Origin: a virus
Taxonomy: Duplodnaviria > Caudoviricetes
Virus record (IMG/VR): IMGVR_UViG_3300013426_000017
Location: 111,407-175,406 of that record
Strand: one strand, 5' to 3'
Length of the DNA stretch: 64,000 nucleotides
Shown: positions 14,253 through 64,000 of the stretch, one piece after another
Numbering within the stretch: the stretch's first letter is position 1
Layout: each line of letters begins with the position of its first letter
The notes under the pieces: generated by a model
Told to the model about the DNA's origin: nothing
The model's database searches: none
What the model saw: only the letters and a program-made list of their open reading frames with translations
Program-made: the position numbers and the translations under genes

Positions 14253-14778
14253 GAAAGTATCTAAATACGCAGATGTCGATCTCACGATGCCCAGCCGCGC
14301 TACTGAGTATTCAGCAGGATATGATTTGTATGTGGCGGAGGACACTATAATTCCCCCTATTAGCGAACATATTCATGCTATGAAAACTGCATCTGGTAAT
14401 CCTGTTGGTCGAGTTCTCACGCTCGACCAAATGAAAGATATGACTAAGACCCTTGGCGCCAAGCCCACACTCGTTCCTACTGGAATGAAATGTAAACTTG
14501 AGAATAGAACATACTTGAAGCTTGTTCCTCGTAGTTCTACGCCCCTCAAGTATTGGTTGGTCATGGCGAATGGGGAAGGAATAATCGACGCCGATTACTA
14601 CAATAGTCCGGAGTCCGAGGGCGCCATATACCTGCAACTCATTAATCTTTCACCATTCCCTATCAAACTCCAGAAAGGTGATTGTGTGGCGCAGGGCATT
14701 ATTTGTCCCTACGGCTTGACTGAAGATGATATGCATGGCGGCAAGCGTATGGGCGGACATGGGAGCACTACCACGTGA
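14239..14778 (+). CDS. dut: Trimeric dUTPase
   Basis: SAGYDL, VPTG, PRSS, GIIDADYY, AQGI, R.GGHGST. Confidence 0.93.
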   Translation: MARFEKVSKYADVDLTMPSRATEYSAGYDLYVAEDTIIPPISEHIHAMKTASGNPVGRVLTLDQMKDMTKTLGAKPTLVPTGMKCKLENRTYLKLVPRSSTPLKYWLVMANGEGIIDADYYNSPESEGAIYLQLINLSPFPIKLQKGDCVAQGIICPYGLTEDDMHGGKRMGGHGSTTT

Positions 14779-15257
14779 TTCTTTTAGCGTTAGACCAAGC
14801 CTCATAGACATCTGGTTACGCAATATTTGATGAACAAGAATAGTTAATCACTAGTGGCGCATTTACAATATCTGGGCCATTAGAAAAACGATTAATGAAA
14901 ATACGATAGAAAATTTAGCAATTAATTACAAAATATAATATTACAGAAGTTGTATTAGAAGATATCCAAATGGAAAAGGGTGTAGGTAATAATGTAGTAA
15001 CATTTAAAGCACTTGCTGAAGTAATTGGTGTTATTACAGAGTTACTTGCCGAATTAAAAATTCCATTCAAGATTATCCCCTCATCTACGTGGCGCAGTGG
15101 CCTTGGCATTAAGGGTAATTAGCGTTCGGTTTATAAGAAGAATGCCCAAATGTTTGTGGAAAAAAATTATTCCAAAGCCGCCACAGAAGATGAATCTGAT
15201 GCTATTTGTATTGGAACCCATTATATTAGAAATGAAAAAATGTCCTCGGCGTTCTGA
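14775..15257 (+). CDS. RuvC-like Holliday junction resolvase (160 aa, 5 in-frame TAG)
   Basis: GTG start overlaps the dut stop. MILLALDQAS[TAG]TSGYAIF, VVLEDIQ, PSSTWR, TEDESDAICIG give the RuvC D/E/D catalytic pattern. Absent from the ORF track because of the TAGs. Confidence 0.87.
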
Positions 15258-15275
15258 CGCACGAGGACAATTTTA
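15241..15275 (+). terminator. Hairpin at end of the replication operon
   Basis: TGTCCTCG..GCGT-TCTG-ACGC..CGAGGACA followed by ATTTT. Confidence 0.5.
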
Positions 15276-15309
15276 ATTAATGTATAACAACAGAAAATCA
15301 TAATATAAT
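15265..15309 (+). promoter_or_regulatory. Putative promoter with shared upstream motif
   Basis: GGACAA-N5-ATTAAT-N22-TATAAT upstream of 15350. Confidence 0.6.
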
Positions 15310-15349
15310 AGGAGCATACGAGTATTTCAGGAAAGGGGGAAATTAATCT

Positions 15350-15874
15350 ATGTTGGAATTTATAGCACAATACTGGCTGGAATTTGTATTAGGCATCGTC
15401 GCTGCTGGACTAATTGGTCTAGCTAAATATTTTTGGGGCTTATTTAAAAAGCACATTAAAGAAACTCTTACAAATGAGATTAGCGCCATGACAACTACTA
15501 TACAAAAGTCCATGGAAGCTAATGATGAGAAACTGGGTATCCAAATCAATAAACTAGATCAAAAGATTACTGATTTGGAACAAAAGGCCACCCAAACGGC
15601 CGCCACAGAAAAAGGCTTGGATGATAGGCTCGACAAACTCGAAGAAGATCTTACAATTCTCAAGGATGGCGTTTTGTCCATCCAAAAACAACAATTTATG
15701 GACGAATGCAAAACACTCATTAATTAGGAAACGCCAATTGAGTATGAACAATATGAAAAAATAACCAATGAGCATCGGGTATATAATGCACTTGGCGGAA
15801 ACCATGATGGTGATGAGTTATATAAACTTGTATTTAATAAGTATAGCGGCCAGTTAGAACATACACAGAAATAA
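15350..15874 (+). CDS. Holin-like single-pass membrane protein (174 aa, 1 in-frame TAG)
   Basis: N-terminal TM helix and coiled coil. After TAG 15725 it continues to YNALGGNHDGDELY, a YxxLGGN motif I recall from Firmicute phage lysis-region proteins. Confidence 0.65.
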
Positions 15875-15924
15875 AAAAATGGGGAACTAATACTGTGAAT
15901 ATTAGTTCCCCGATTTATTTTTTA
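15875..15924. terminator. Bidirectional intrinsic terminator between convergent genome arms
   Basis: A-run, GGGGAACTAATA-loop-TATTAGTTCCCC, T-rich run. Confidence 0.85.
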
Positions 15925-16233
15925 TTCTGTCATACGAGTAAATATTTTATTAGTTGTATCTATGATTTCCTAACCATAAGTAGCAATAAGGTCTGCTAGT
16001 AATTCTTCTTGCTAGACATTTAATTCTACATTATAGCTAAACATCGCCGCGTGTGTTATTTCATGGCACAGCACTTTTTTCATGCGCTCTGGTGATAAAT
16101 TTTCATTGATATAAATTGTTTTCGACTCATCATCACATGAACCAATGGCTAATGTGCCATTACTACGGATTAATTTAGGATGAATAGTGGATGTTAATGC
16201 AATCATCCACTATTCACCATTTATCTTGAACAT
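15922..16233 (-). CDS. Small HEXXH metallopeptidase-like protein (103 aa, 3 in-frame TAG)
   Basis: MFKINGE[TAG]WMI...G.CD...IYINENL...VLCHEITHA...[TAG]QEELLAD. Minimal zincin (ImmA/IrrE-like) layout. Confidence 0.75.
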
Positions 16234-16234
16234 C

Positions 16235-16804
16235 TCATTTTATCTTTGCTGCTAGAGCGGAAATCTTGCTTTGTAGCATCTGCTTTTCTTCGGGCGATGC
16301 ATCATCAATCATTTCTGCAATATCAACAGAGAGTTCTTGCATGTAATGTTCCAAATCCTTTAGCTGAGTTGTTTTATCTTTATGTAATTCTTTCGATTCC
16401 ATATACATTTTACGGCTCATAGGGCTGCGTCCTTCGCGCCTATCCCGCAATTCCATGGGATAAGGGCGTTCAGTATAATACGTGGCGCCGCCCGATTTAC
16501 CGGTCTCATAACCACCAGTATCATGCCCGCCAGACCTGTCGCCGCCATAATACATACGACCATAATCTTTATCCATGTCTCTTAGATAATCTCTGCTGTA
16601 TGGACGATACTCGGTGTAATATTTTTTTTCTTCTTCGCTCTTCTCCATGGCTTCGGTAATCTTCGCGTAGTAGCAGGCCTCCTCCATATCCTTGATCATG
16701 TCTACTACTTCACCAAGTTCTTTTGCATCAACTTGATCGAGCTTGCCCATTTGGCCACTGACCTGAGTTATCAAGCAATCTTTAATGCTTTTTAATCTTT
16801 CCAT
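16235..16804 (-). CDS. Hypothetical protein of the six-gene module (charged, helical, Tyr/Arg/Gly-rich middle)
   Basis: 189-aa ORF, LGEVVDMIKDMEEACYY...EEKQMLQSKI. Confidence 0.8.
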   Translation of the reverse strand: MERLKSIKDCLITQVSGQMGKLDQVDAKELGEVVDMIKDMEEACYYAKITEAMEKSEEEKKYYTEYRPYSRDYLRDMDKDYGRMYYGGDRSGGHDTGGYETGKSGGATYYTERPYPMELRDRREGRSPMSRKMYMESKELHKDKTTQLKDLEHYMQELSVDIAEMIDDASPEEKQMLQSKISALAAKIK

Positions 16805-16805
16805 A

Positions 16806-17225
16806 TTACGCCACCCTTTCTACTATTAAGCTAGCGTTCTGAACATCTACTGCAACCGTAGAGGTATTCTCAACACTAACTTGTGTGCAGCATCCAGAAG
16901 GAACGTTCAAGAACAACGTGCGAGAAACATTAAAGAATTCCTCAACGGCTGCTGGGGTTACTATCATTTGGGTTGCTGATACAGGTTCGCCATTAATTGC
17001 AATTGCTAACTGAATTGGACCGGCAGTTCCGCCAGTAGGCAGTGCAATGTTGGCGCCGAAGGTCACGCGAAATCTGGCGCGACTCTGGTTAGTTATGCCG
17101 CGGAGGGTAATGAGACCGCTACCCTCTCTGTGCATAATGGAACAGCTACCAGCAACAGCAGTATTAGTAAATTCTACATTAGAGCCGGCATTAACCGTCT
17201 ATAAAGCATTGGCTGTTATTTCCAT
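16806..17225 (-). CDS. Beta-sandwich protein, possibly BclA-C/TNF-like (139 aa, 1 in-frame TAG)
   Basis: RBS AGGAGG. MEITANAL[TAG]TVNAGSNVEF...FRVTFGANI...LAIAINGEP...VSVENTS...NASLIVERVA. Alternative ATG at 17231. Confidence 0.7.
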
Positions 17226-17245
17226 AATCATTTACCTCCTGTTAA

Positions 17246-18318
17246 TTAACCGTTGCAGTTACAAGTGTTACCATAAAGGTAATTGCATCCGCCGTAGGAA
17301 GCATAGGGATTCTGCACAACGTATGCAGGAATAGGTGCGCGCTGTGCCAGCTGAGATACGAGGTATGCATTTTGCTCACTCTGAGAAATCTGACCACGAA
17401 GCGAAGCATTCTCTGCATTAAGCATATCAAGTTTATCCTGAACAAGGAAGTCAAGAATAGAACGCATGCTAGCGTTAGTGTTGTCAATAATGTCACGTGC
17501 TGCATCCTGAGTAGCGCGACGATTCTCACAAGCCTGGCTCGCCAAATTGTAGTTTAAGTCGGCAAATGAACTCTGAATAAGCTGTTTTGCATCGCAGCAG
17601 CACTGTGCTTGCTGAGCGGCCATTGCAGCTAACTGACTATTGGTCTGATAATGTGCATCAATGATCGCACCAGTAATAGCATTGGTATTCTGCAAGTTGG
17701 TCATGCCCATGTTACAGATATCACTTTGGATATTACGTGCACTACCATTTACAGTCTCATTGACACCCGAGAAACCAGCCAAGAGGCTAGAGTTAAGACC
17801 ATAAGCACTATTAGCAACATCGCTAGTGATACCACGGATGCCACTTCTAATATCGCTAAGATCGAAACCATAAGTGAGTTCGTCGCGAGTAAGAGCACCC
17901 TGATAGCCTGCACCGTTGGAGCCATTATTGCCACCCCAACCGCCGCCCCAGCCAGCGAAGCAAAACAGAAACAGGATGATGATCCCAATAATGTTACCCT
18001 ATAGGCTTTTTATCCTATAGTTCTAATACTTGAATTCGTATTAGTTCAGCATATCTTTTTAATTTTTGTATTTTATCAAAAATTATCGCGGCCTCGTGGT
18101 AGGATTATATCTTTTCACCTACTATGCGTTGCCCCTGACTAGTCTTAGACTAGCCTTCGGTTCGGATTAGCATCTCAGCCTTCCCGCTTAATTCCGCGAT
18201 TTAACCATGGCAAATCATCTTACCATGCACCGTCTCCGCCCCACATGCCGCCATTGCGGTCGTTACCAGTAGCCGCAGCTATGTCAGACAAGCTGTAGCC
18301 CGAATTTGTGTTGAACAT
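17246..18318 (-). CDS. Gly-rich membrane/coiled-coil protein, 278 aa; join(complement 18318..18222, 17985..17246)
   Basis: MFNTNSGYSLSDIAAATG...GGDGAW-W-IIILFLFCFAGWGGGWGG...AQCCCDAK...coiled coil...PIPAYVVQNP..CNCNG after intron removal. RBS AAAGGGG. Confidence 0.85.
17986..18221 (-). mobile_element. ORF-less group I intron (236 nt)
   Basis: Minus strand: P1 CATGGT/GCCATG (U.G), IGS GATGATTT pairs the 3' exon GGATCATC, P3 ATCGCGG/CCGCGAT, P7 GCATA/TATGC in AAGATATGC, P9 hairpins, terminal G. Removal restores the frame. Confidence 0.88.
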
Positions 18319-18348
18319 ATTAAATGTCCCCTTTCATAAAATATATTT

Positions 18349-18591
18349 TTACAACCCCAAATTATTTTTGAAGTTTGTAAATTCTTGATCAAAATCTACG
18401 CCACGAGAAGCGCAGAAGTTGCGGGCAAATTGTTCAATACCTTGAGCATTATTATTCTGGGCTAATGATAATAAGTTTGCTCCAACAGGATTAGATTGAG
18501 CTTGGTTCTGAAGCATATTAAGCATTAACTGTTGAGGATTTTGCCCACTTTTAATCATTTGAATTAATTGCATAGGATTCATTTGCGGCAT
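18349..18591 (-). CDS. Small Met/Gln/Asn-rich helical protein (NP repeats, STI1-like appearance)
   Basis: MNPMQLIQMI..QNPQQLMLNML..SNPVG. RBS GAGGTG. Confidence 0.75.
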   Translation of the reverse strand: MPQMNPMQLIQMIKSGQNPQQLMLNMLQNQAQSNPVGANLLSLAQNNNAQGIEQFARNFCASRGVDFDQEFTNFKNNLGL

Positions 18592-18607
18592 TGTAATTCA
18601 CCTCACT

Positions 18608-18985
18608 TTAAAATTTGTATGGCGCCGGCTCGGTTTGTGCCTCATTAGTCGGCGTGGTAGTAGGTGCGCTAGGTCTAGGCTGCGCCACTAACTCTTGAAT
18701 CTTTAGCAATGCGCTTTCAAATTCTGCTCTTGTGACGTAATCAGCTGTAGGCGCTACTGGCATAGGCTTCAGTTCATACATATTCAATGTAGCAGTTCCA
18801 TCCATATTAATTTGTTTAGTATATATTTTCTTATTCGCCAAATCAGGAAAATAAAATACTGAACCATCAAAATCAATGGAGAGCGCACGAGCTTCTTCAA
18901 GAGAGGACACAGGGCGTCCTTTCAATGAGTAAGAAGGCTGCCTAGGCGGTTGAGTTGGTGCTTGGAAATAATTATTACTATACAT
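18608..18985 (-). CDS. Hypothetical protein, first gene of the six-gene module
   Basis: LKGRPVSSLEEARA..DFDGSVFYFPD..KIYTKQINMDG..YVTRAEF. Start at 18985 or 18994. Confidence 0.78.
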   Translation of the reverse strand: MYSNNYFQAPTQPPRQPSYSLKGRPVSSLEEARALSIDFDGSVFYFPDLANKKIYTKQINMDGTATLNMYELKPMPVAPTADYVTRAEFESALLKIQELVAQPRPSAPTTTPTNEAQTEPAPYKF

Positions 18986-19015
18986 TGCTAACATCCTTTC
19001 ACTATTTTTCTTTCC

Positions 19016-19060
19016 ATTATATATTGGAAATTGGGATAGAATGATTAATCTACTTTGACA
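19016..19060 (-). promoter_or_regulatory. Putative promoter of the six-gene module with shared motif
   Basis: TGTCAA-N5-ATTAAT-N22-TATAAT. Confidence 0.6.
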
Positions 19061-19095
19061 ATGTTTGTAAAATTTTTTGTTACAAATTTTTGGGC

Positions 19096-19138
19096 AAAAA
19101 AATAAGGGACATCCTAAAAATTAGGATGTCCCTTTTTT
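19096..19138. terminator. Intrinsic terminator after holin
   Basis: AAGGGACATCCTAA-AAA-TTAGGATGTCCCTT flanked by A and T runs. Confidence 0.85.
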
Positions 19139-19148
19139 CTATTATATA

Positions 19149-19541
19149 TTACTGTTTAGACTCTTTAACCGATGCTTCAATACGTTCAGTGATATAGGTT
19201 TGCAAGTCGCCAATCACCATCGGCAAATATTTATTGGCCTCATCGCCAAGCGTGCCTAGAACTGCATTATAAGTTTTATTAAACGCTTCTTTCTGTGCGT
19301 CAGCATCAAATGCGTTCTTCTCTTTCAACGATTCAACATAAGTCTGATTTGTTGCCGTAACGCACTTGACTATTGTATCATTGAGAATATCAAGATACTT
19401 CTGCGCCAACTCATTATCGGTCTGTGCCTTGATTTGATCTTTCTTCTGGGCGATATATTCAATAACGAACTTCGCCACAATGCCCAGCAAGGGCACAATA
19501 CATAATTCAAAAATCTGCTGTAATATAGATAACCAATCCAT
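19149..19541 (-). CDS. Holin (LL-H-like)
   Basis: MDWLSILQQIFELCIVPLLGIVAKF TM helix, then TIVKCVTATNQTYV..LK...F...KEA...IEASV. Confidence 0.7.
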   Translation of the reverse strand: MDWLSILQQIFELCIVPLLGIVAKFVIEYIAQKKDQIKAQTDNELAQKYLDILNDTIVKCVTATNQTYVESLKEKNAFDADAQKEAFNKTYNAVLGTLGDEANKYLPMVIGDLQTYITERIEASVKESKQ

Positions 19542-19555
19542 TAGATTATCCTCCT

Positions 19556-21874
19556 TTATATTTTGGTTAATTTCCAATTGGAACCATCATACACATATGG
19601 AATAGCTTGCTACCAACCGCTGTTAGAAGTAGCGCCAGTGTATATCCATACATGATAATCGCCCCAATCGGTACCATTATTTATCTTTACTGACCATTCA
19701 GGTTCCCAAATGGCATATAACGACATATTAGATGTCTATTCATAATTTGTTCCTGAAGAATAATTAGTTCCTGTGCCATCTGCAGATGTATTCCAAGCAA
19801 CGAATTTATAACCAACTCGTGATACATTTGGTGGGTTAAATTTAGCTTTAATTGTTGTCCATTCAGGATATAATGTTAAATTAGATGTAAGAGTATAAGT
19901 GCTACCACATCGCCAATAATCTACACCATCACCTGATGAAGCAACCGCACCGCTATAATTCTGATTCCAATAATTCTACTAGTATTGAATTGCATCTTTT
20001 ATCTAATACCTTGGTCCGTTAGCGACTGCGGTTGCAGAATAAGTATAACCAGAGGAAGGATAGTTATATGATACAATACTACCACCCGATAAATAATAAT
20101 TAGTATAGTATGTTGTACCATTAGAACGAGTATAAGTGGCATCTCGAATCTTGAGCTTATAATTAGTAGTGGTTGCAGAATAAGTGGTAGATGGTGAACC
20201 ATATCGACCGGGATTATAAGTTACAGTATATTCATTTGCTTGCCAAATTGCGTATAAAGTACCGGTATATCCCGCATCAAGTGCATCCATAGGAGCGTCA
20301 TAACTGGTACCAGTACCACTTGAATTTGTGTTCCATTCAATAAAAGTAGCAGAACTATTAACTGGCTAATAAGAATGATTTGTAGAATATCGAGTACTCG
20401 TGGTTGTGGTAGAACCATAACCATATTTTCGTTTAGTAACCTATTTCCAAGCCGATGAAGAAGCAATAGAATACCCGTTACCGTTTAATGAACAAGTAGT
20501 AGTTGTTGTTCCATCCCAAAGGGCATATAACGAACCAGCATATCCAGCTTCAAACGCGCTCTATGGATTAGAATAGACAACAGTATATGAACCACTTGAA
20601 GTGGCCCAGCCTTTAAAACTTGTATATCCCGAAGGAGCTGAAGGGGAATAAGAACCATTGGTATATGTAGTTCCACCACCGCTTGGAGTAGGTGATTCAC
20701 CATATAACCAAGCTTCAGCCGTCGTGCTTTTCGCAGTTGCGACAAAAGAACTAGAACAGTTATATAGAGTTATAGACTTGCTGCTAGCGCTTTTTTTGAA
20801 TACACACCAACGCTCTTTGTTATTATAGGTAGCAACCCAAGTGGAACTCGCAGTCTAATCTACTGACGTTGTATTTGGGGAAGATGCATAGCCAACAAAC
20901 GTGTATCCACTAATTGGTGGGTCCTGGCTACCGAGTGTATAATCTTGTGATTTATATTTGTCAGCGCTAGTCATTTCAAAAGTGCCAGTAGAACATAAAT
21001 GAACTTGCCAAGTGTATGATGGGGCCACAAAAGTTAAATAATTAGCTGTGCCTGAGTATGTAGCTGTCTAATTAGGAATAACTGTGCAATAATATAATTT
21101 ATAATATCGAGAAGTGCTAGTATCCTAATCCACTTTAAAATTACACGAAGTAGAATTAGCAGTAGACTCACTACGAACATAATAAGGACCAGTGGGATTG
21201 TTACCCACAAGCCATCGACCTGAATAAGAACTTTTTCCCTAAAAATATTGTGCACCAGAATATAAACCGTAGCCAAAAGTAGTTCGAGTTATGCTTGTAG
21301 GCTTGTATGTATTTACAGTAGGTTCTGTATAGTTGAAAGTCACTGAAAAACGAGACGCTGTAGATAAATTCCACTGGCACATAGCCGATGTATTCCAAGG
21401 ATAGGAAGCAATATAAATGTAAACTCCACTGGTATTAGCCGCAGACAAATTAAACTGTTTTGCAGAATAATTAAAAGTAACATTGCCAAAACTATCTACG
21501 GCTGCTGTTGGCGTAGTGGCGTAGACTAAAGTAGTATCGCCTAATTTTGTAGGACCTGAATTCATCCAACCAGAAGGCGTGTCTGTGGAAGCGGTAGAAA
21601 CAGACATATAACTACCCAGCTATTTCCCACTTGCAATACCCGAACAGCGTGCCAACTAAATGGTAAAATTAATATAATTAATTGTAACCTTTTGATTTTT
21701 TAAAGCGGTTGGGATTGGAACATAAAAGACTGCAACTGCACTACCACTACTACCGTATCCTACATAGCCGCCTCCACCTCCAGAATATTTTGTACCCCAA
21801 GTCCAACTTGATCCCACACCAGATTTACCATAAAATCCGGACAGGTTATTATGAGAATACGTTACTGAAGCCAT
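19556..21874 (-). CDS. Ser/Thr/Tyr-rich virion accessory/fibre protein with InlB-B (Listeria-Bacteroides)-like repeats (772 aa, multiple TAG)
   Basis: Track fragments 21656-21874, 21239-21607 and 20003-20290 share one frame. Repeats GY.F.GW/WNT..GTG..Y...LYA.W. C-terminus GW[TAG]QAIPYVYDGSNWK. Confidence 0.75.
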
Positions 21875-21888
21875 TTATTCACCCCACT

Positions 21889-22530
21889 TTACGCCAATTT
21901 AAAAAATATTTGTCCAGTGGTTCCACTTGAAGGTAGTGTAGAACCATATGAATTATTACCAATCACAATCTTAGCATTACTAGTAAATGTAGCGCTACTA
22001 TTAGTAAATGATACATTAGATTTTATGTTAGTCAGTCCATGAATATGATCAGCTCTAGCTACTTGGTTACTAGAACCTGCACTTGTGGTTTCGCCTAGAT
22101 TTGAGGCGCTACCAAAATTAGTAGACAAAGTTATATTGCCAGCTAAACTACTACCACCCTTTAATCCACTATTAGCATCCGTGACTATTTTTACAGTTTT
22201 TAATGCATAACTATTCTCAGAACCTAACTCTTCCCAGTTACTACCTAACCATACAAATTCACCATTACCATTGGATAATACAACATCGCCAATGGTCGGT
22301 GTAGATATAATACCAGTTGGCATATTTGATTGACCGTTTACCATGATATCAGTAGTCGAGCCTGCGAATTTCAACGCTTGAGATAAGCCTAAATTAGAAG
22401 CGGTAATAGTCACAGGCGTTGAGCCATTAAATTCTGAATCGCCAATAGTTAATGTATGATAAGTCTAAATACCTCGTGTGTCGCCATTAGGTAATTCAAC
22501 TTGATTTATAAAACTATCTATTTCTGTCAT
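21889..22530 (-). CDS. Tail-fibre-like protein (213 aa, 1 TAG)
   Basis: Extended upstream through TAG to ATG 22530. GDVV..GEFVWLGSNWEELG, ARADHIH, C-terminal YGSTLPSSGTTGQIFFK. Confidence 0.7.
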
Positions 22531-22540
22531 GTCTCACACC

Positions 22541-22945
22541 TCACTGCATTTTGGACCAGTCAAGTTCTTGTTGAACTTGATGTTCACCCACATTAGAATT
22601 AGAATAATATAAAAACTTTTCTTCGCTAACGCTCTCTTGTGGCTCTAATAATACTTCTGGCGTAAGCTGCGACAACTTTAATGCCTTATCCGAAAACTCT
22701 GCCTTGTTAACACAATTATCTTCTTTATATTTGAATTGTTGAAGCATACTTTTAAATACAATACGCTAATCAACATTGTCCCATTTAACATAAGTATAGG
22801 GATCATCATCTATAATAAACAATTCATTAGGTGCGGCATTTTTTATTACGTCATTAATAAATGCCTAACTCATCACACCTTTTTGGACCTTGTGGATTGT
22901 TAATCCATTAACTTGCGTGCTACTATTTGAATATTGCAATCCCAA
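22541..22945 (-). CDS. Hypothetical protein (2 TAG)
   Basis: TTG start after AGGAGG. In frame with track ORF 22541..22747. Confidence 0.55.
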
Positions 22946-22971
22946 TTAAATCATCCTCCTTTATAATATAA

Positions 22972-24246: not shown

Positions 24247-24264
24247 TTTAATCTACCCTCACTT

Positions 24265-35000: not shown

Positions 35001-36870
35001 TTGGAATAGTATTATCTGTTAAACGCAATTTTGGCAATATCATTGCCAAATAAGCATCATAACTTGAATAGCCCGTGGCACGTTGTGCTAAAAATTGCTC
35101 AAACACTTCATCATCTTTCCATCCTCTATTGATATTGCTATCACTAGGATTATCAACTACTTGGTATCGAGTATATGTAGTAATAATCTTATCATAATTT
35201 TGAATATTACTAATTTTCATTTTAAACTCTATGGTATGAGAAGACTTATTCTATCCTGCAAACGCCATAGAGCCAATAGGAAATGATACAGAAGCGCCGT
35301 TGCTAATTCTTAAACAGGTTGGACTATTATCTTCCATAATCCAACCATTGTTATACCAGTTAAAATTAGATAATGTTGCTTTTGAATCACGAATCTCAAT
35401 TACAGAACGCTTTTTCGCTGACTCAGAATTAGAACGACCACGAGCATCAAAATTAACAATGGCACCATCTACAATTCCCATATGTCTTTCATCTGGCAAA
35501 ACTGTAAATTCAGGAACTCGCTCCATGGCTTCATGTTCACCATCGCCGACACGAATTTGATATACTGTTGTTTGACCAGCAACCAAATTAGTTAACTCCC
35601 AAATTTCATAAGCAGTTTTATCTCTATCAACTGCACGGCCATCCTCGCCAGACACGTTCTTACTATTTTCATATAAGTATAAATGCATTACACTATTGTT
35701 AGGGTCATAAGCACGAATTGGAATAGCAGGTGTATCAAATTCATAATATGTTTTTTTAACATCACCGAACCAAATCAAAGGCTCTTGCTCATTAAGATAC
35801 AATCCTACTTCTCGCGTGATTACATCAGTGCCACTGCCACGAGTGCCATCAGATTTTACTAAACTTAATTTAGCTGAAATTGTGTGGCGACCATGATTAT
35901 AACTCGCTCCCAAGGCCACTCCTGTAGATTCATGCGTATCATAATCCACAATTTCACTTGCAGCACGCACATTTATCTCAACGTCGGTAGTTTTCTCATT
36001 CTCCATTTTACTATATATCAAATAGTCATCAAAATAGATATCTAATATTCTACGTGAACCGCCAAGGATTTGAACTGCAACAGTAAAATTATCGCGGAAA
36101 TATGATAAATTAGTAAATCGACTATTTATCCAGCTAATATCCATTGCATAAGTGGTCACATTACGAGAAACTTGGCCACCACCTACAAAGATGTTACCAG
36201 GACTACCTGATAAAACAAACATTAAATCTGTTGAAGTGGACTGGCGCAAATGTTCAGGCTTATAAATTAATGTTTGGCCATGCGCAACCTTAATCACTTC
36301 AGTATAATAAGGCTCAGTATCTTTAGCTGCCATATAAGTAATAGTCAACTTCATGTCTTCTGGATCAATTGGTTGGCCATCTTCAGTGGCTGAAGTTGCT
36401 GTAATACTGAAGGAGCACTCTTCGCCATTCAACAATTCAGTCTCACCTAAACTAGTAACAACTAAGCGACCGCGCACTTTTGAGCTGCCGTCATTGCCGC
36501 TACCAGCTAGCGCCAAACGATATACGGATAGCGAACCGTCTTCTTCATAACCCAATACTCTATAAAAACATTGGTCAGACTCGTTAATAACCAAATCGTC
36601 TTTTCGGGGCTAAATGATGTAATTTGCAAAAATTTCAGCGGGATTCATAATACTCATTTCGCCAGTGTTATCACCCAGCTCACTTGAGTCGAAACTAGCA
36701 TAAAAAATACCAGTATTTCCGCCACCCATTAAAATAAATTCATTGCCATCACTATAATAAATTTTATGAGTATCAATAGCAAACCACACTTTGCCCTCAT
36801 CAGGTGGCTCATTAAAAATAGAATCCTCTTTACCACGAATCGGTATAAATGGAACTTTACTATTTAGCAT
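29044..36870 (-). CDS. Giant (2608 aa) virion-region protein with LamG-like, CotH-kinase-like and LRR domains
   Basis: Fourteen track ORFs from 36610 to 29494 share one frame and are separated by TAG. CotH-like motifs QGTSS..YPRRNYK, TLKVDYMESS, GRYN, WEFENN, DSRGKN, PIFYDMDT.LG. C-terminal BspA-like LRRs (IDTGAF..C..L, IGAFAF). Confidence 0.8.
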
Positions 36871-36896
36871 AAACCTTCTCCTTTCTATCCTTATAA

Positions 36897-36929
36897 TAAA
36901 AAATCGGGACAAGGAAAAATCCTTGTCCC
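36897..36929 (-). terminator. Intrinsic terminator-like hairpin
   Basis: Minus strand GGGACAAGGA-TTTT-TCCTTGTCCC followed by GATTTTTT. Confidence 0.7.
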
Positions 36930-36993
36930 AATCGAAAATTTTCCTCATAGAATTTTAAATAATTCTATAAATTAATTAATGTGTTTTGTCCAA

Positions 36994-53762: not shown

Positions 53763-53797
53763 AAATAAAAATAGGGGAACCACTTAAGGTTCCCCTA
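53763..53797 (-). terminator. Intrinsic terminator after tape measure gene
   Basis: TAGGGGAACC-loop-GGTTCCCCTA with a T-tail on the minus strand. Confidence 0.85.
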
Positions 53798-53804
53798 GAT
53801 AAGA

Positions 53805-56800
53805 TTATTTGCGATTTGCATACTGTGATGCTAAGTTAACTATATTCTCAAATGCCTGTTCAATTTCATTGTGGTCGACTGCGTTCGGGAACGAAGCCTC
53901 AATGTGAACATTCTACTCAAGAATTTCAGTTGCTGTGGCGGCGCTGGCCGGTATGAGTTCCCTAAGCGCAGACCATACGGACGCTTGATCGAGCCGCGCC
54001 ATCAAATCATGCAGTAATGTAATCGTAGTTAACAGATTACTTGTATCATTCTTATTTAGCACCAGTTCTTTCTCATGAAGTAATGCCCAACGGCCCTCGT
54101 TGCCCCAAGAGCCAGTATAGCCACCAGTGTCGTATTGAGATGCGGTTGCCAAGATACGACGCTTCTACTCAGCCGACATTTCATTGGGATCTTTTGCATA
54201 CTAATTAATTTTTTCTTGTAGCTATGCCTCGGACCAAGCTACAGCTTTTAAACTAGCATCATTATGAACTTTATAGGCTCGATATTCAGCATAGAGCCCC
54301 GCATCATCATAATTACCAGCCTGCAGTGCTTTTTCCATTTCGGTGCCCCAGTCAGTTTTCTTGATATAAGGCGTTTTAGCGGTTGATAATATTGCATCAC
54401 GCTCATCTTGACTCATTGGATTATTTTTATCCTGTTTTTCATCAATGATTTGATTCATTTTATCTTTATCCCAGTCGTATTCGCCATAAGCGTCAGGATT
54501 AGAATCAATCTTTTGGCGCCGCGCCTTGGCGTAGCGTTCTGCCATCTCGTAGTCACCATTAGCAAGGGCGGAATAGAATAATAAACTCATATCTTCGCCA
54601 CTGAGTCGCGCCAAATAAACCATGAGCTCCTCGATCATATCTCTAAAATCTTCGCTCATTTCTCGAATAGCCTTCGCCACTTCGTTAAAATTATTTGTTG
54701 CGTTTGTAGTAGCCTCATTTAATGATTTTTGTGTATTACTCATGTATTCCACCCATGCTTTCTAGGCTTCTTCATAGCTATTAATCTATTTGCCAGTAAT
54801 GTCGCTAACCATTTGGGTAAATGCATCTTGATACTTTTGAGTCTCACTAATCATCTATCCGGTCATTTCAATACTTGCATGACCAAATGTCTCCATAACC
54901 TCTTGCAGTGACTTAGTATTTGTGGCCTGGCCTAGGATGGTTTCTTCATAGGCTAACCCACTCGCTTCTAACGCTTGAGCATAGGTCTGATAATAATAAT
55001 CCAATTGCTTCTAATACAGACTTGTGAGCTCTTCGGCGCGCTTCTGTTTTTGCTCATCACTCAAGTCACTGGATTGTAATTCTGTCATCGCGTCAATGTA
55101 ATCATTCTGTAGCGATAGAATCTTTTCGCCCGCATCTTTGAGCGTATCCTCTTGTAACTCTTGTAATGCGTATTGCTTATCCTCTAACTCTTGCTCAGCT
55201 TTATCGACTTCCTCAGTATTAGCGGTATACATGTAGCCCCAACGACCTTCGTTATCACGAGTTAGACGCACCTCACTCTTGGCGTTACGTGCATCTTCAA
55301 GCGCGATCTCCGCCAAACGCAATTCATACTGGGCTTGCAAGTTCTTTAATTCGTACTCACTCATCTTAACATTATCAGCATAATAGCCATTAATGTCTTT
55401 CATTAGATCGCGTAACTTAGTCTTGGCGACTACGCTATCAAGCTTATTAATATCAGCTTGAATATTACGATTGAGCTTGTTGAGTTCATAGACTTTACGA
55501 GTATTACTCAGATACAACTCACTGAGGTCAGTCAAGTCGCCATACTTATCAATTGCCCATTCAAGGCCCTCATACAAGGCGTCTTTAGTCTTTTGGCCAA
55601 TCAATTCAAGATTCTCGACCCACTGATCTTTGATAGCATTGAGATAGTCACTTGCTAATGAAATTAATTCCATTTGTTTCTCATGAACTTGTTGATCAAT
55701 TTCATCAATCTAGTCTTGCAACTTCTCACTATAGGCTAATGCACTATCTTCCATAATGGTGAGGTCGCCAACGTTTTCAAGCTTGCGTATATCGGCAACA
55801 ATACCATCAATTAAATGGCCCTGCTCATCAACGCTCTTACCCAAGGAACTACGAGATTTATCCAACTCTTCTCTACGAGCCTTGAGCAAGTCAATCTCGC
55901 TCTAAATGCCCTTAGCTTCTGCCTAATAGGTCTTCCTAATACTATCATTCATGGCGCGATTATCTTCGACAGTCGCCACACCAAGTAATGAATACATATC
56001 CTTGATAGTCTCTAATGAGTCTCTATAATCACGAATCCTATCTTGGTAGTTCTCTAACTAATCGAATAGGTTGTTATATCTATCACTTATACTATCTATT
56101 TCATCGTTATACAACTCATAGATATTATCTTCCATCTCACCCAAGGCTTTTTTATAGTCTCGTAACTTCTGAATTTGCTCATCAGTGATTTCAAGACCTT
56201 TGGCTTTTTGCTCATTAATCTGAGCTTCAATACCTCTAATAGCTTCAGCATAGATAGCATACTAACTCCAATAAGACATAATCTTCTCTTGATTAATTGC
56301 AAATACTTCTAAGCTTGCTTTCTCTACCTCAGACAAGCGAGTCAAGCGACGCTCAAGGTAATCGAGTTTATCCTCTTCAATCTCAACCTTGTATTCAACC
56401 TTATAGGTAATCTTTTCCAATTTGGCAGATACAATCTCGTATTGCTTATCTAATAGATTACCAGCTTCCTCGAGTTTGAGAGCTAGGGTTTCTTCGTATT
56501 GGTCAAGAGTTTCTTTAAATGTGTTATAGGCCTCTTCTGCTTCATCGGTGAGTGATGCATTGAATATATCTAATTGCTTCTGCATGAGAGCGTCGTAGTT
56601 AGTGATAATACCATTAGCATCAAATACTGCGCCATATTTAGCGATTGCTTGGCGATCCTGCTGATAGTAGCGGTTAATCTCGTCGAGATAGCGCTTCTAT
56701 ATTGCTTCTTGTTCTTGAAGCTTGGCGATTTCATTATCAATAGCTTTGAGTTTGTCAGGACCATAAGCACGATCTTTTGCGGCAGATAACTAATCATATT

Positions 56801-59800
56801 CAGAAGATAGGCGATTGAGTTGCTGCTTAACAACATGGTAGCGTTCTATTTCATCGGAAGCTTTCTTTTTGTCTTTCTTAGAACCGCCGCCACCACCACC
56901 GGACGAAGAAGACGACAGATTTCCAGTTGAACCTTTCCCAGTAAAAGTGGCATTAGCAATGATTTTTCCACCACCGGATTTAATTGCAGACTACTAATCT
57001 TTGGTTAAATTACCGATAATAGGAATCCTAATAACGTCTGCGCCTATAGCTTTTAGATCATTTTTAGTAGTAATTGTCTTTTTATCATAGCCACCATCAT
57101 CATTAGGCACTAAAACCTCTTGTTCTTGGCTACCAATAAATGCTGAGGCCTAATCAGTAGGTATTTCTACATAACTTACATCAGGCGTAAAACCAATACC
57201 ACTTAAAATGGCATTCATATCATCAACAGTTATTTGCCCATCAGCCAATAGCTACTCTAAAACGCCTTTAAAACCAGAGTCATCGAGTGTGGCGCCGACC
57301 TCTAAATCGGGCATAAGCTCAATTAAATTGTATAAACCCTATAATTGAATTGGTAATTCGTCTACAGAAGAAGCTCCCTTGATATCTAAAACGACTTGTT
57401 TAGCAGCTAACTTCTATAGTCGTTTATATGCTTCTTCATCACCCTCTAGGGCTGCTTGAATAGTTTCAAAATTTTCTATTAAAAAATCATCACTAAACTA
57501 AATACCAAATAATTCTTTTAAGCTTTTCTTAAAACTATTAACCTTTTTCTAAGCCTCTAAACTTTTATCCAAGCCTTTGGCCCAATCACTTAAAACCTAT
57601 TTATTATTTTTAAACTCCTCTGACGCAGTATCTAAGGCCACTTGAGCCTTTAACTAACTTTCAACTAAATCTAACGCTGCCTTTTGATTATTGGCATATG
57701 CTTTATTATTCGCCATAATGGCAGCTGTTTGCTCTTCAATATACCCAGTTGTAACGCCATATTCATCAGATAGATCATTAGTTTTTTGATTAATACTATC
57801 CTAATACGCCCGTTCGCCCTAATCGGAATTACGATAATTTATTCCTTCTTGAACACGTTCAGGAATAAAAGCCTTGGTCTATTTTATAGCGTCAGCAAAA
57901 GCGTCAGCAACCTCTGTAGATAAACCTGTAAAATCCCATTCACCAGTATCTGCATAATGCTATAAAATATTATCTCTATCTTCATCTGAGATATTGACAT
58001 TATTATCGGCTAAATTTGCACGAACTTGCTAATAAGCAGCAAGCTACTTCCCTACAGCTTCTTCGGTGGCCTATCCTACATTATATTTGGCCAAGTACTC
58101 TGCCATCTCATCAGCGGTAATTTTAAAACCATCATTCCAATTACCAGCAGCGTCCTAGGTGCGTAATACCCAATCACCATCTTCGTTTTTCTCAATTGTC
58201 TAGGTCTCTGGATCATAACCAGCTTTTTCAAAATAATCTTCTGCAATTGCCTTATCTGTATAATTTTTCTCAATGCGCTCCTGCTCTTTATCTATATCTT
58301 CTTGAGTTATTTGTCCTGCTCGAATACTAGCCGCTAATTGCTAGTCAGCATCACTCAAACTATTATAATAATCATTATCAGAATTTATGCCGTCAGCAGA
58401 GGTTTTAAACCAGGCCCGCAGCGCTGCAGTATTCGCCTATAATGCAGTCACATTATCTGAAACAGCATCAAACTGACTATCCAATGCATTAAGCATACCA
58501 TCAGAAATATCAGCCAATCCATCAATAGACCGCACTGCTTTTGCAAATGCTTGATCATCATTCTATGCTTGTGCGGCTTGAATTTCTGCCCAGGTTTTTT
58601 TATCGGCTTTCGCCAACTCTTTTATGACTTCGACTTCATCTTTTGAAGCCATTCCACCATTATCAGCAATAGTTAATCCAGTACCTATAACTCCTAAAAC
58701 ACTACCTATAAGAGCGCCGCCCAAAGCTCCAACAACATTACCCAGAACTGGAACTATTGAACCTAATGCGGCTCCTGCTAATGCACCAGCCATAGCACCT
58801 CCTACAGCGCCTTCAGCCATATAATTTGCGGTAGGAGCAATATCTGATGCAGTATGCATCTTTCCAGCCGTAGTTTCAATATCGACATCTGTTTGTGCTG
58901 CTGCAGCATTTAATTTTGCCGATTGTGCTACGGTCTATTGTTGTAATAGCCGTTTAGATTCTTCTTGCCGCGCAACTAAAACAGAATCTTCATCTAATTC
59001 AATGAGTCCATCTGTGCCTATTGTATATTTTATTCCATCATAATTATTAATTAATTGCAAAGCTGCTTCATTAGCTTCTCGCACGGCATCAGTATATTCA
59101 ATGGTGCCCTCAGTTAATTCTTTTAAATTATCTTTAGCGGTATTATAATTATCCCAAGCCGTGGTTAATTCATTATAAGCTGTTTTTGCTTCATTATATG
59201 CATTTGCTAAACTAGTAGCATTTTCCTATGCAGCTTCTGCCGCATCCTAAGTCGCATTCATCGCATCTTTTAGCATTTTAGAAACCTAAACAGCTATTGC
59301 AATAGCCGCTGCAATTAATATGAAGGCTTTATATTTTGAAATAACTGCACCTAAACGCTGCATGGCAGCGGTCAAAACATCTGTAGCCGTTGCTTCTTGC
59401 AATTTCGCTGCTGCATCTTTATAATGGGCAAATGTATCGTCATCTGTAATTTTAATACCTGTTAATTTTTGAATGTTTTGTATTGCTTCTTCTCGACTTA
59501 ATTGCCCTGTCGCTTCTTTTTCAAAAATAACAGCTAATGCATTTTTATTTTTAACAACCGCGGCTGCTTCATTCATAGAAACTGACATTGCTTGCGCCGC
59601 TGCTTCTGCCTCAACAGCAAATTTTAAATCAGTGTATATAGTCTTTACAGAATTTAAAATAGGTAAAAAGCTACCTAAAACCATACTAGCGCTCATTAAA
59701 ATTGATGTAAATTTATCCCAGGCTGATAGGTCTGGATTTGAAATTGTATCAATAGCAGATTTAAAACTACTTATTCCCATGGTTAACGAAGAAGCTAAAT

Positions 59801-62591
59801 TGACAGCATTTTGCACCTTCTGCAACGCGGTTAATGTATGTGTAAATCTCTTTAATGCCGTATCTTGTATTTCTGCTGCCGCACTAGCAGCTTCTAAGGC
59901 CTTTTTTAAAGCCTATTCAGCACTTCCTGTTTTAATCAACTCATTTCGAAAAACTTCTAAATCTTTCGTGCTTAAATTGAACTACTTAGCCAATTTTTCT
60001 TCTAAACCACGAATCCGCTCTAAATTATCTTCAGTAGCCTATTGAAAACCCGAAGAAATTATATTACCCTTCTTATCACGACTGCCTTCGCTTAGCATTT
60101 CTATTAAAGCTGGTAAATCGTCATTAAATTCACTAGGATCATCTAAGGATAAACCGTCTAAAGTCTTTTGTAAAGCGGTGGTTTTAACTCCAGCTTCTCC
60201 TAATAAATCTATTAATCCCTATAATTCATTCTTTAAAACATTCCAACTATCAGAATCTAAAGTCTCACCGGAAATATCTGGCACTCGTGCAAGAATAGCT
60301 TGTAATTGTTCCGAACCCGTATCTAATTTACCCTATAATTTAGAATAATTTTCTAAACCACCCTATCCATTAATACCATAAATTAAATCATTATAATAAC
60401 GTGCCTAACCTAAATCCTCCGTAGAATAAGATTGAATTCGTTTAAAAATCTTCTATAATTCTTTATTTTTACCTGTTCTTTTTCCATTTAAAAATTTACT
60501 AATATCATTTTCGCTAATTGAAGAACCACCTAACTCCTGAATAAGTGAAGTAATTTCTGTTTTCTCTGTATCAAAACTTGTAGAATTATTACCCCATATC
60601 GCTTTTATCCAATCCTGCGACCATTCTTCTTTGGACATTTTTAACCAATTACTAGTTAACTAACCAACACCCTCAAATTGTGTAACTTTATCTTTTCTTA
60701 CATTTGAAGATAAATATAAACTACGTTCCGCAATCTTGGCCTACTAATTACCCGCGTCAACCTATTTTGCCATATTTTCAACCATTTCAGCTTCAACACG
60801 AGCTTGGTCAATTAACAAACTTAACTGCTAAGATTCTTGTGCAGTTAATTTATCTGCATTATTTAAACGATATTGCTATAATTTATTAATCTAAGCATAA
60901 ACATCAACGACCCCAGTACCAGTAGCATTACCCTGAGCCTAATACATAGATTGCAAATTAGACATTGCTTGCTCACGCAACTATTGGTCAGCCTCGTTAC
61001 GCGCTTGACGAACACTAGGAATTAAACCGCCAATATTATAAGCGGCCGTAGAAATACCTGCAGCAATCTTATCCCCCCAGAGTTTGTTCATCAATAGAAT
61101 TAAACCAGGCAACAATCCTGCTAATCCGCCCATTGAATCAATGATTTTATCAATTAAACCAACTACATCAGATAATGCATCCGTTAACCAAATAAAGAAA
61201 TCATCCTTCAGCAAATCATCATATAAAGTTTCCATAGATGCTTGCAAACGATTTCTTGCAGCTTCCCAAGACTCTTCATAAATCTTCTGCTGTTCATCAA
61301 GAGTACCTTCTGCGCCATAAGCAGTCGCCAAGTTCTCGCCCATGAAGTCCCAGTTATCCATTAACGCAACGAATTGCGTATACTGACGAACACCTGCAAC
61401 CGTCTGCGCCAATGCAATCTACTGGTCCTTACCGATAGTATCCCACTTAGAACCAATCTCATCTAGAATTTCATCCATGTCTTTCAGTTGGCCCGCTTCA
61501 TCCTTAATATTGACACCAACAGCTTCAAGAGCAGATGAATATTTATTCAAAGTAGTGCCATCATCTAGCGTCTCACCCAGATTCAAACCTTCAATACGAG
61601 CAAATAAGGTCTTTAATGCGGTACCAACAACATCAGCACTTTGGCGAGTCTTTGCAGTAATCGTAGTGAGTGCCGCAGTTGCATATTCATAACTTAATCC
61701 AACAGTATCAGCAACTGCTGCAAACTTTTCCAAGCCATCAGCAATCTCGTCAGTGCTAGATGCCGTGGCGGCGCCAAGTGCTGTCATTACATCGGCATAG
61801 TATTCAGCAGCATGTTCGCCATTTTTCATAAAGTTTTCCCATACTGCGGTCATTTGCTGCGATACGGTCTGTGCAGTCGTACCAGTAACATTCGCCATCT
61901 TGATGGTAGTATCAGTACGTTCCTTAACAGCCTTATCATCCAAGCCTTGCTGGTAATAAATCAAACTAGCATCAGTATAATCAAGTGTAGTAGCACTTAA
62001 CTCTTTCGCCGCTTTATTCGCTTGCTTGGCGAAGTCCGCCATACGATCTGCACTATAGCCAGTAACAATACGAATATCATTAAGAGACTTATTTAAATCC
62101 TTAGCATAATTATAGGCATCAGATAACCCACTCTACAGACCATGCATAATATTCGATGAAATCTGCCAGCCTGCTGTACGCTTTAAGGTATCCCATAATT
62201 TATCTAGTAGCCCCAAAGAACGAGTAAGTGGCGACTCTGATGCTACAATAGCCTTCGCTAAATCTGCAAACGCCGCCTGGCCACTCGGGCCTATCTAAAC
62301 CAATGCAGTACGATACTTCTCTAAACTCATTCCTGACTTCTGCATTTCCCTGTTGAATTTGGTTAAGTCAAGACTATTAGTATTAACATTAAGTGCGTTC
62401 TATAAATTCTGGCGCAGCTTGATTGCTGCTTCGGATGCCTAATTTAATTCGTTAGACAATTTATAGCCGCCCAAATCTAAATTCTATTGATTGGTTATAT
62501 TTCGTAATGATGATTGTAGTTTATTCAGAGCCTACTCGGCCGAAGAAGTCTCCGCAGTAAAATTCAATCTAACTTCAACAGTTCTACTCAT
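53805..62591 (-). CDS. Tail tape measure protein (2928 aa, many TAG)
   Basis: N-terminal TP901-type TMP domain (L..IRIVTG, YYQQG, VGTALKTLFARI, G...KDMDEIL, AGVRQ), TM-like segments, long coiled coils, C-terminal DTGGYTG..ALLHEKELVL. All large in-frame fragments join via TAG. Confidence 0.9.
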
Positions 62592-62627
62592 TACTCAATT
62601 CTCCTTTCTCTCGCTTTTATTTTTGCG

Positions 62628-62670
62628 CAAAAATAAAATAAGTCCGTCGAAAAATAATCGACGGACTATT
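62628..62670 (-). terminator. Intrinsic terminator-like hairpin before the tape measure gene
   Basis: AGTCCGTCGA-loop-TCGACGGACT followed on the minus strand by TATTTTATTTTT. Confidence 0.75.
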
Positions 62671-62703
62671 TCTCTATTTTATTTAAAAATTAAAATAGAT
62701 AGA

Positions 62704-63222
62704 TTAACCTAATTTATCCAAGACATCCTTTACCATAGTCAAACTTTCCGGCGCCAGATTAATATCCTTTACGATATCCTCTAACTCCAAATTCGACTCC
62801 TTAGCGTCGGCCATTAAGCCCTTCAAGATGCCACGTGCCGAGTTCTTATACTCATAAATTGAATGAATAAATTCCTCAACGCCACGGACTATGAAAGAAT
62901 AATCAGGACTTTCAGACACAATTGGAATAATAGCTTGGAAAACTCCATTGGAAAAAATGTCATACAAATCAAATATGCTAGCATTTTCATCCACTTTAAT
63001 ATCTGTGTATGCCAATACTAATTTTACAAGTAAATTAATTTTACCTAAACAAGGGTTATAGAAATCATTATCATCAATAGATGCATTAACAATATCACTT
63101 ATCAATTCCATTTTTTCCAATATGGGAATATTTTTCTTAACAGTAACTTGAGTATTGCCAATTGGAACAAGATCGGTAGAAGTATCAATACCTTCTATAC
63201 CCAATTCATTTATATTAATCAT
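62704..63222 (-). CDS. Hypothetical protein (position typical of tail assembly chaperone)
   Basis: 172-aa TAG-free ORF immediately upstream of the TMP. RBS AAAGGAG. Confidence 0.65.
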   Translation of the reverse strand: MININELGIEGIDTSTDLVPIGNTQVTVKKNIPILEKMELISDIVNASIDDNDFYNPCLGKINLLVKLVLAYTDIKVDENASIFDLYDIFSNGVFQAIIPIVSESPDYSFIVRGVEEFIHSIYEYKNSARGILKGLMADAKESNLELEDIVKDINLAPESLTMVKDVLDKLG

Positions 63223-63260
63223 GGTTAATTAATTTCTCCTTTATCACATCTTCTAACGAT

Positions 63261-63289
63261 ATTATATCGAAAAATTTTTATTTTGTCAA
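63261..63289 (-). promoter_or_regulatory. Consensus sigmaA promoter
   Basis: TTGACA-17-TATAAT, perfect match. Confidence 0.8.
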
Positions 63290-64000
63290 GTTTTTAATGA
63301 TTTTATCCACTTCCTAGGTAATCATGCCGGTATTAAATACTGCATTATGTTTACCAACCATAGATGTTTCTATGGTTTGCGTAAAGGGCACTAAAATCTA
63401 TCGTATTATCTCAGCAGTCAGCTTAGGATTATTCTTAGCATCTAACGAACCAAAAATAGCATCTAGCTAATTGATAACATCATTTAGGCTTCTTTCCGAA
63501 GACAAACCTAATATACTATGATTTGTTTTAGACTTCCTAACTATTTTATCAATATTAGAAAAATTTAAACTTTTAACAGAAACATTATCAATATCTCCGC
63601 CAGAATACCAGCTTAGATTGTCAACGGCCCTAGTGAAGTATAAACGTCGAATACCATCCCAATCTTGTAATCTATCATCAGTGGCATTCGCCATTGTTAT
63701 AAAAGCCTTAGCCTACTAACTATAATCAAATTTACAGTAACCTCGAGAATAATGCGCTTCAAAAACCTCTTGTGCTACACCTGGCGATTTAATTTTTCCG
63801 CCTACCACTTCTAATAAATGTCCTTGAAAATATCGGTAATGCTAACTAATATCAATTTGACTAGCTGCAGATTCCTACTTTAAAATATTGCCAGCATTAT
63901 CAAAAAAACGACTCAGGGCAGTTTTTGCGTCTAATCCTATGCGTTTACCTTGAGTAGAAAATATTTCATTAATTTGATTAGCAGAATACTCAACCCTCTG
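63278..64000 (-). CDS. Hypothetical protein, 5'-truncated, TAG-rich
   Basis: Frame of 63467..63694 continues through TAGs to TAA 63278. I did not trace the upstream part codon by codon. Confidence 0.55.

Follow-up and report, generated by a model that had tools for sequence, protein, structure and literature searches.

The DNA stretch analysed here, the window, comprises the final 64 kb (64,000 nt; positions 111,407 to 175,406) of a single viral contig of 175,406 bp, IMG/VR record IMGVR_UViG_3300013426_000017 (Caudoviricetes), with completeness estimated by CheckV at 96%. It constitutes the tail-gene arm of a gut phage of siphovirus type (175 kb), designated G000 when compared with the related genomes G001-G004. 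Under the standard code (code 11), the minus strand between 16.2 and 64 kb contains only fragments of open reading frames (ORFs), the longest of 447 amino acids (aa). We asked if this arm consists of broken genes or of long genes in which TAG is a sense codon. Very probably, late genes of this phage use TAG as glutamine (Gln) codon (genetic code 15), early and replication genes avoid it, and the phage encodes its own tRNA with CUA anticodon (tRNA-CUA). Positions refer to the window unless marked as genome; window position 1 is genome position 111,407.

TAG in late and early genes

Successive minus-strand fragments lie in one frame and are separated by TAG alone, as a sequence-only reading of the window had noted. 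When TAG is treated as sense, the same frames are joined into ORFs of 2928, 2634, 1423, 1115, 802, 772, 766, 696 and 646 aa. Altogether, fusion of TAG-broken frames gives 21 tightly packed minus-strand genes, which extend from ~16.2 kb to the window end and belong to the late arm. About 20 packed genes had been anticipated, and the sizes then quoted (2928, 2608, 1423, 1115 and 802 aa) were reproduced; the 2634-aa frame equals 2608 aa if counted from the ATG at 36870, which is preceded by a ribosome-binding site. None of the 21 genes is broken by TAA, TGA or a frameshift. Shine-Dalgarno (SD) matches of at least 4 nt precede 19 of the 21 reconstructed starts versus 9 of 55 starts of code-11 fragments, in line with the proper ribosome-binding sites claimed earlier. 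All 21 genes close with TAA or TGA without need for frameshifts. This had also been stated correctly, but it follows from the construction itself, and independent support comes from intact orthologues in G004.

Coding density under the two codes, proposed as a check, was compared in bins covering genome positions 130-175 kb. The fraction occupied by ORFs of 100 aa or longer increases from 0.43-0.70 under code 11 to 0.93-0.99 with TAG as sense; control values are 0.52-0.70 with TGA and 0.69-0.87 with TAA as sense. The TAG-coded arm continues beyond the contig end into genome positions 2023-18789, with portal, terminase pieces, head genes and a LAGLIDADG endonuclease.

The phage falls within a large IMG/VR clade of 110-200-kb genomes, in which both code states are represented. 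In G001, G002 and G003, coverage rises from 0.42-0.49 to 0.75-0.77 with TAG read-through, and tRNA-CUA is present in each. G004, a 194-kb relative, has no tRNA-CUA and gains no ORF coverage from TAG read-through. Two giant genes of G004 (3228 and 2603 aa) are uninterrupted under code 11. The former ORF contains no TAG and matches the tape measure protein over residues 1-2928, and the latter is the open frame to which residues 11-2565 of the 2608-aa protein align. Among 82 related head-module loci, 62 contain in-frame TAG and 19 contain none. At least three changes of code state are needed on the portal tree, which is a quick IQ-TREE version.

Looking shattered under code 11, the late arm might be taken for pseudogenes of a decaying element, or for the product of assembly or sequencing errors. 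The probability of this is practically negligible: the breaks are TAG only, the positions of ribosome-binding sites match the reconstructed genes, sizes of these genes agree with the intact G004 orthologues, and the same pattern recurs in the 62 head-module loci and in three complete relatives, each with tRNA-CUA.

In-frame TAG occurs in 17 of the 21 late genes (172 TAG in 14,648 codons). It represents 172 of 618 Gln-type codons (28%) in the late arm and 34% of those in the tape measure gene. In contrast, TAG is missing from all 4215 codons of the 13 early ORFs, whose 142 Gln codons are CAA (111) and CAG (31); the difference between both arms is highly significant (Fisher p = 2e-18). Early genes stop with TAA (6), TGA (6) and TAG (1), and the lone TAG (7871-7873) has TAA one codon later. 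Genome-wide, TAG is found within the last seven codons of only two plus-strand ORFs. TAG is thus essentially never used as terminator. The earlier assignment of the recoding to minus-strand fragments of the virion arm applies to the late arm but is slightly too narrow. The RuvC gene, which has five TAG, lies on the plus strand, and outside the window HNH, LAGLIDADG and GIY-YIG homing endonucleases carry 2-8 in-frame TAG each. A 1390-aa Ig/Listeria-Bacteroides-repeat protein outside the window has in-frame TAG as well.

Phages of code-25 hosts follow the code of their host (Borges et al., preprint 10.1101/2021.08.26.457843), and the host of G000 could likewise read TAG as sense itself. This is extremely improbable, since a TAG-free early arm with 142 CAA and CAG codons would not be expected in such a host, the phage has its own tRNA-CUA, and close relatives in the clade use the standard code, with repeated code changes on the portal tree. 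The host is probably a bacterium of Bacillota/Clostridia with standard code. Search via the phage permease returned only 28-34% matches (uncultured Clostridia metagenome-assembled genome, Paenibacillus), too weak to name the host.

The share of TAG among Gln-type codons is uneven, ranging from 0 to 0.62 in late genes (heterogeneity p = 3e-6). Three head-module late genes (genome 6119-8630) have no TAG and prefer CAG (25) to CAA (7), the reverse of the remaining late arm. Such preference may be a signature of highly expressed capsid/scaffold genes; PDB sequence search with the candidate capsid protein gave no match. On the contrary, a probable major tail protein with 7 TAG argues against avoidance of TAG by abundant virion proteins.

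This unevenness, together with the single tRNA-CUA gene and the lack of any detected release factor or synthetase gene (see below), would fit a TAG that remains a stop codon and is partly read through, leaky in a regulated manner or limited by the suppressor, with mostly truncated products. Such a scheme is highly improbable. With 65 TAG to be passed in the tape measure gene, which is essential, and another 25 in the gene for the 2608-aa protein, it is unworkable, as simple arithmetic over 65 codons illustrates (0.99^65 = 0.52; 0.95^65 = 0.04). Moreover, TAG is nearly absent as terminator, apart from the ambiguous early stop and the two plus-strand ORFs mentioned above, and TAG positions are kept as TAG or Gln in dozens of relatives. 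The 65 consecutive read-throughs in the tape measure gene imply that suppression is near complete (~99% per codon or better).

Amino acid at TAG and the suppressor tRNA

All genes of G000 were aligned with (1) the 82 related IMG/VR loci and (2) the four whole related genomes, TAG being masked as X in query and subjects in every alignment; likelihoods were derived from a substitution profile built on the same alignments. Over 134 TAG columns in the 82 loci, Gln is in the majority in 39, TAG in 37 and lysine (Lys), the next, in 9. The commonest codons opposite TAG in pooled cells are CAA (495), TAG (377), CAG (108) and AAA (104). Log likelihood is -267.5 for Gln, -359.8 for glutamate (Glu) as runner-up and -360.6 for Lys. 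When only standard-code lineages are considered, Gln is found in 38 of 81 cells and Glu in 3 (log likelihood -182 vs -269). If the comparison is restricted to genes of the window, Gln leads by 17.6 log units against G004, by 100 against G001 and by 151 against the four genomes. Strongly conserved TAG columns (n = 7) are occupied by Gln in six cases and leucine (Leu) in one; one column consists of 56 Gln and 16 TAG and nothing else. Opposite window TAGs, G001 (85% identical) has TAG 51, CAA 27 and CAG 8 times; in the reverse test, G000 codons opposite G001 TAGs are TAG (102), CAA (55) and CAG (31). Since CAA is the favoured partner though two mutational steps away from TAG, the pattern reflects Gln codon usage and not mutational proximity. 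Gln identity had previously been deduced from sequence contexts, all five of which are present in the genes named. Comparative evidence supports the view that TAG behaves as Gln codon, Gln being the best-fitting residue in every data set.

ARAGORN detected no tRNA in the window, and the sequence-only reading, which saw neither suppressor tRNA nor release factor there, was right in this respect. However, a tRNA with CUA anticodon is present at genome 69572-69647, 42 kb upstream of the window and within the TAG-free plus-strand arm. It is one of nine tRNAs called by ARAGORN in the whole genome (69573-69643), and Rfam model RF00005 matches positions 69572-69644 with 32 bits (threshold 29). Rfam covariance alignment yields a cloverleaf; in this register, the tRNA has a U1-C72 mismatch, G73, G10, U35, A37, an encoded CCA and one bulged base in the T stem. 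Classical identity features recognised by glutaminyl-tRNA synthetase (GlnRS) are U1 with weak or absent 1:72 pair, G73, G10, U35 and A37, and U1-A72 is also a GatCAB mark of tRNA-Gln. The suppressor is 100% identical in G000 and G001, as compared with 90.6% for the surrounding region. U1 with unpaired position 72 and G73 are common to the suppressors of G002 and G003 and to tRNA-Gln(UUG) of G004. The nearest non-suppressor tRNAs are phage tRNA-Gln(UUG) with 56-63% identity, other tRNAs reaching 39-53%. The ARAGORN label tRNA-Pyl was rejected, since it follows from the anticodon only and the normal GG and TTCGA loops are unlike those of tRNA-Pyl.

A tenth tRNA gene, similar to tRNA-Gln(UUG), lies at genome ~54570-54644. 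It has an unusual T arm and was missed by ARAGORN, but is 89% identical to a G001 gene that the program did call.

Could TAG encode another residue, such as Glu, Lys, tyrosine (Tyr), Leu or pyrrolysine? Glu and Lys are the next commonest residues opposite TAG, ARAGORN labels the tRNA 'Pyl' (from its anticodon), and charging might proceed via glutamyl-tRNA synthetase (GluRS) if the host is devoid of GlnRS. Nevertheless, Gln is ahead of both Glu and Lys by 92 log units in the 82 loci, and it comes out best by 87 in the standard-code lineages and by 17.6 to 151 in the window gene comparisons; six of the seven conserved columns are Gln; and the tRNA, with its normal loops, is nearer to phage tRNA-Gln than to phage tRNA-Glu (49% identity). 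Sense reading of TAG as a residue other than Gln is therefore very unlikely.

Two perfect sigma-70 consensus promoters (TTGACA-17-TATAAT) are located 25 and 123 nt upstream of tRNA-CUA (genome 69421-69547). In the whole genome, 24 perfect promoters (12/12 positions, TTGACA-N16-18-TATAAT) were found, 22 of which lie in the TAG-free arm on its plus strand; the 66-kb late arm has only one. With one mismatch allowed (at least 11 of 12 positions), 47 sites are counted, as compared with 9.4 in shuffled sequence. Several perfect consensus promoters precede other tRNA genes.

The genome scan for tRNA-CUA, GlnRS and release factor 2 (RF2), suggested along with the original observation, recovered the tRNA and neither of the two proteins. 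Searches for the domains of RF1 (release factor 1) and RF2 (PF00472, PF03462) and for the catalytic domain of GlnRS/GluRS (PF00749) gave no hit in this genome, which is 96% complete; positive controls worked. Phage RF2 or synthetase is an accessory that few code-15 phages possess, not a defining feature.

A possible translational lock and the gene content of the window

Since early and replication genes avoid TAG, they are readable by an untouched host. Host RNA polymerase would transcribe the TAG-free arm, giving rise to early proteins and the suppressor tRNA. The tRNA would then be charged with Gln by a host enzyme, either GlnRS or GluRS plus GatCAB, and only afterwards would late mRNAs become translatable to full length. 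Near-complete suppression would require some means of outcompeting or neutralising host RF1. In sum, virion genes would be kept under a translational lock in addition to transcriptional timing. The genes locked in this way would be those for virion, packaging and recombination functions and not, as far as can be seen, those for lysis.

Several points weigh against Gln decoding by this tRNA or against its role in timing. The tRNA clears the Rfam threshold narrowly (32 vs 29 bits) and has a bulged T stem, its ARAGORN register differs from that of Rfam, and its single-sequence minimum free energy fold is no cloverleaf and does not surpass that of shuffled sequence, as is often the case with single tRNAs. 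No gene for RF2, RF1 or GlnRS was found that would account for beating RF1. One TAG resides in the Leu-conserved column, and in poorly conserved tail genes the preference is less pronounced, G004 residues opposite TAG being Gln in 18 of 104 cases, Glu in 14 and Lys in 12. The consensus promoters of tRNA-CUA suggest early rather than late expression, so that late timing cannot be due to the tRNA by itself. Finally, a single lysin candidate can be recognised (Amidase_2, genome 86710-87162), and as it is free of TAG, the published recoding model gains no support here in its lysis-timing version.

Two early genes contain a four-base insert TAGC, in each case within a catalytic motif. The first (genome 111372-111375, 32 nt before window position 1) splits the PHP motif of DnaE, LHN|HTDYS, and the second (genome 83830-83833) splits the phosphoesterase motif SDTHFG|HDKEF. 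In both cases, the motif is restored by deletion of the 4 nt but not by reading TAG as Gln. The dnaE site carries TAAC in G002 and G003, and no insert is found in standard-code G004. From their sequence, the inserts look like stop codons at which ribosomes undergo a programmed +1 shift or bypass 4 nt. TAG might then act in two opposite roles. If accumulating tRNA-CUA decodes the TAG of the inserts in frame and thereby diverts ribosomes to a nearby TAA, one tRNA would allow synthesis of late proteins and shut off that of two early enzymes (DnaE, phosphoesterase). We regard the two-role reading as unlikely; TAAC at the dnaE site of G002 and G003 speaks against it, because tRNA-CUA cannot read TAA.

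With Gln decoding of TAG as the preferred reading, the phage offers a clean example of the arrangement: a TAG-free early arm, a late arm with TAG as 28% of Gln codons, a suppressor tRNA behind host-type consensus promoters and a standard-code sister lineage. The tape measure gene with 65 TAG in a phage without its own release factor sharpens the question of how host RF1 is beaten. There is also a practical consequence. Code 11 mis-calls about one third of the genome, all tail genes included, as fragments, and table 15 is needed for annotation of G000 and its 60-odd recoded IMG/VR relatives.

Features of the window are listed in Table 1. For most tail genes, Pfam and PHROGs returned no family. 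The RuvC gene has TAG at codon 11, where G001 has CAA and G002 and G003 have TAG. Outside the window, a tail-fibre-like protein with Mtd_N (major tropism determinant) domain (genome 55175-56467) contains TAG at codon 323; three relatives have TAT (Tyr) at this position, unlike the usual Gln pattern.

Table 1. Features of the 64-kb window with number of in-frame TAG codons (window coordinates).
Feature	Position	Strand	In-frame TAG	Remarks
Early/replication arm, 13 code-11 ORFs	189..14778	+	0	dnaE part, permease, dUTPase (Pfam); TAG-free contrast region
RuvC-like Holliday junction resolvase, 160 aa	14775..15257	+	5	PF02075 1.6e-7, phrog_827 1e-19 (TAG=Q)
Late gene, 141 aa	16806..17231	-	1	ANAL*TV; TAG in G001-G003, CAA=Q in standard-code G004
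Protein with Listeria-Bacteroides repeat domain, 772 aa	19556..21874	-	14	
Four late genes, 213/134/424/483 aa	21889..25716	-	1/2/7/4	
Late gene, 646 aa	26778..28718	-	2	Aligns to open frame of G004
Structural protein, 2608 aa	29044..36870	-	25	phrog_14959; true start ATG at 36870
Four tail-module genes, 766/244/696/354 aa	36994..43257	-	1/2/12/1	244-aa product with tail-tip domain
Tail protein, 802 aa	43621..46029	-	8	phrog_32343/phrog_1887
Tail protein, 1115 aa	46044..49391	-	9	
Tail protein, 1423 aa	49417..53688	-	13	G001-G003 orthologues: 6-14 in-frame TAG
Tail tape measure protein, 2928 aa	53805..62591	-	65	No TAA/TGA; phrog_4211 3.6e-68, PF10145 2.4e-27
Late gene, 172 aa	62704..63222	-	0	Tail assembly chaperone by position only
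Late gene, at least 176 aa, running to contig end	63278..64000	-	5-7	

A terminator-like hairpin with T run is found on the minus strand at 36871-36993, between the genes for the 766-aa and 2608-aa proteins. It is followed by a strong SD sequence, AAAGGAGAAGG, preceding the ATG of the latter gene. The late arm is thus not a single uninterrupted transcription unit. In the early arm, a xanthine/uracil permease (PF00860, 7e-51) is encoded on the plus strand at 11912-13165. Beyond the window, the terminase large subunit (genome 12220-15037) is seemingly in pieces around an ORF with HNH_3 and NUMOD1 homing-endonuclease domains (13103-13864), which may represent an intron or intein-like insertion. 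The label 'sigma factor' at genome 17701-18789 comes from PHROG only, has no Pfam support and was not built upon.

Relation to known recoding systems

Insertion of Gln at UAG is familiar from supE of E. coli, a tRNA-Gln with CUA anticodon that gives partial suppression against RF1. The phage tRNA shares with it a tRNA-Gln-type body and the GlnRS features weak 1:72 pair, G73, G10 and U35. It differs from supE in that near-complete decoding is needed, and in its C2-G71/C3-G70 pairs and bulged T stem.

Code 15 in gut phages has been on record since 2014–2022. In crAss-like, Lak and 'gemstone' clades of gut phages, TAG is recoded to Gln and suppressor tRNAs are supplied by the phage (Borges et al., preprint 10.1101/2021.08.26.457843). 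Peters et al. (2022, PMC9523058) reported metaproteomic evidence for code 15 in crAss-like phages. Similarly to these phages, the recoded stop of G000 is concentrated in late/structural genes whereas early genes fit the host code, the suppressor tRNA is encoded by the phage (a frequent, not universal feature), and the code has changed repeatedly among close relatives (preprint 10.1101/2021.08.26.457843). On the other hand, some Lak and Agate phages have RF2, none being found in G000, and the same preprint stresses a bias towards lysis genes, in contrast to the TAG-free lysin candidate observed here. G000 is not a crAss-like phage, as its portal matches large siphoviruses of Bacillota only. To judge by the giant tape measure protein, the tail is long and non-contractile.

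The portal protein is most similar to that of phAss-1 (38.6% identity over 89% of the protein), followed by Enterococcus, Brevibacillus, Bacillus and SPbeta-like siphoviruses with 25-29%; Enterococcus EF1-like phages are the next match after phAss-1. The same TAG-to-Gln system has been published for phAss-1 of the proposed genus Phassvirus from human gut (Babkin et al. 2023, PMC10607447; GenBank OQ749652). Both phages decode TAG as Gln in genes of the virion and of certain DNA enzymes, encode tRNA-CUA (tRNA-Sup-CTA in phAss-1) without dedicated synthetase, and possess a giant tape measure protein, 3149 aa in phAss-1 and 2928 aa in G000 (PMC10607447). In the phAss-1 group, standard-code and recoded members likewise occur in one monophyletic group, and a Clostridia host is suspected (PMC10607447). 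The group differs in genome size (133-138 kb vs 175 kb in G000) and in tRNA content, with 28-36 tRNAs including two or three suppressors as compared with 9-10 tRNAs and one suppressor. Phassvirus members share 80-86% nucleotide identity among themselves (PMC10607447). Megablast of a 20-kb tail segment against GenBank phages gave no match, which, together with the portal identity of only 38.6%, places G000 outside the Phassvirus genus. The phenomenon itself is already known and is not new biology; what is new is a distant relative of the phAss-1 group.

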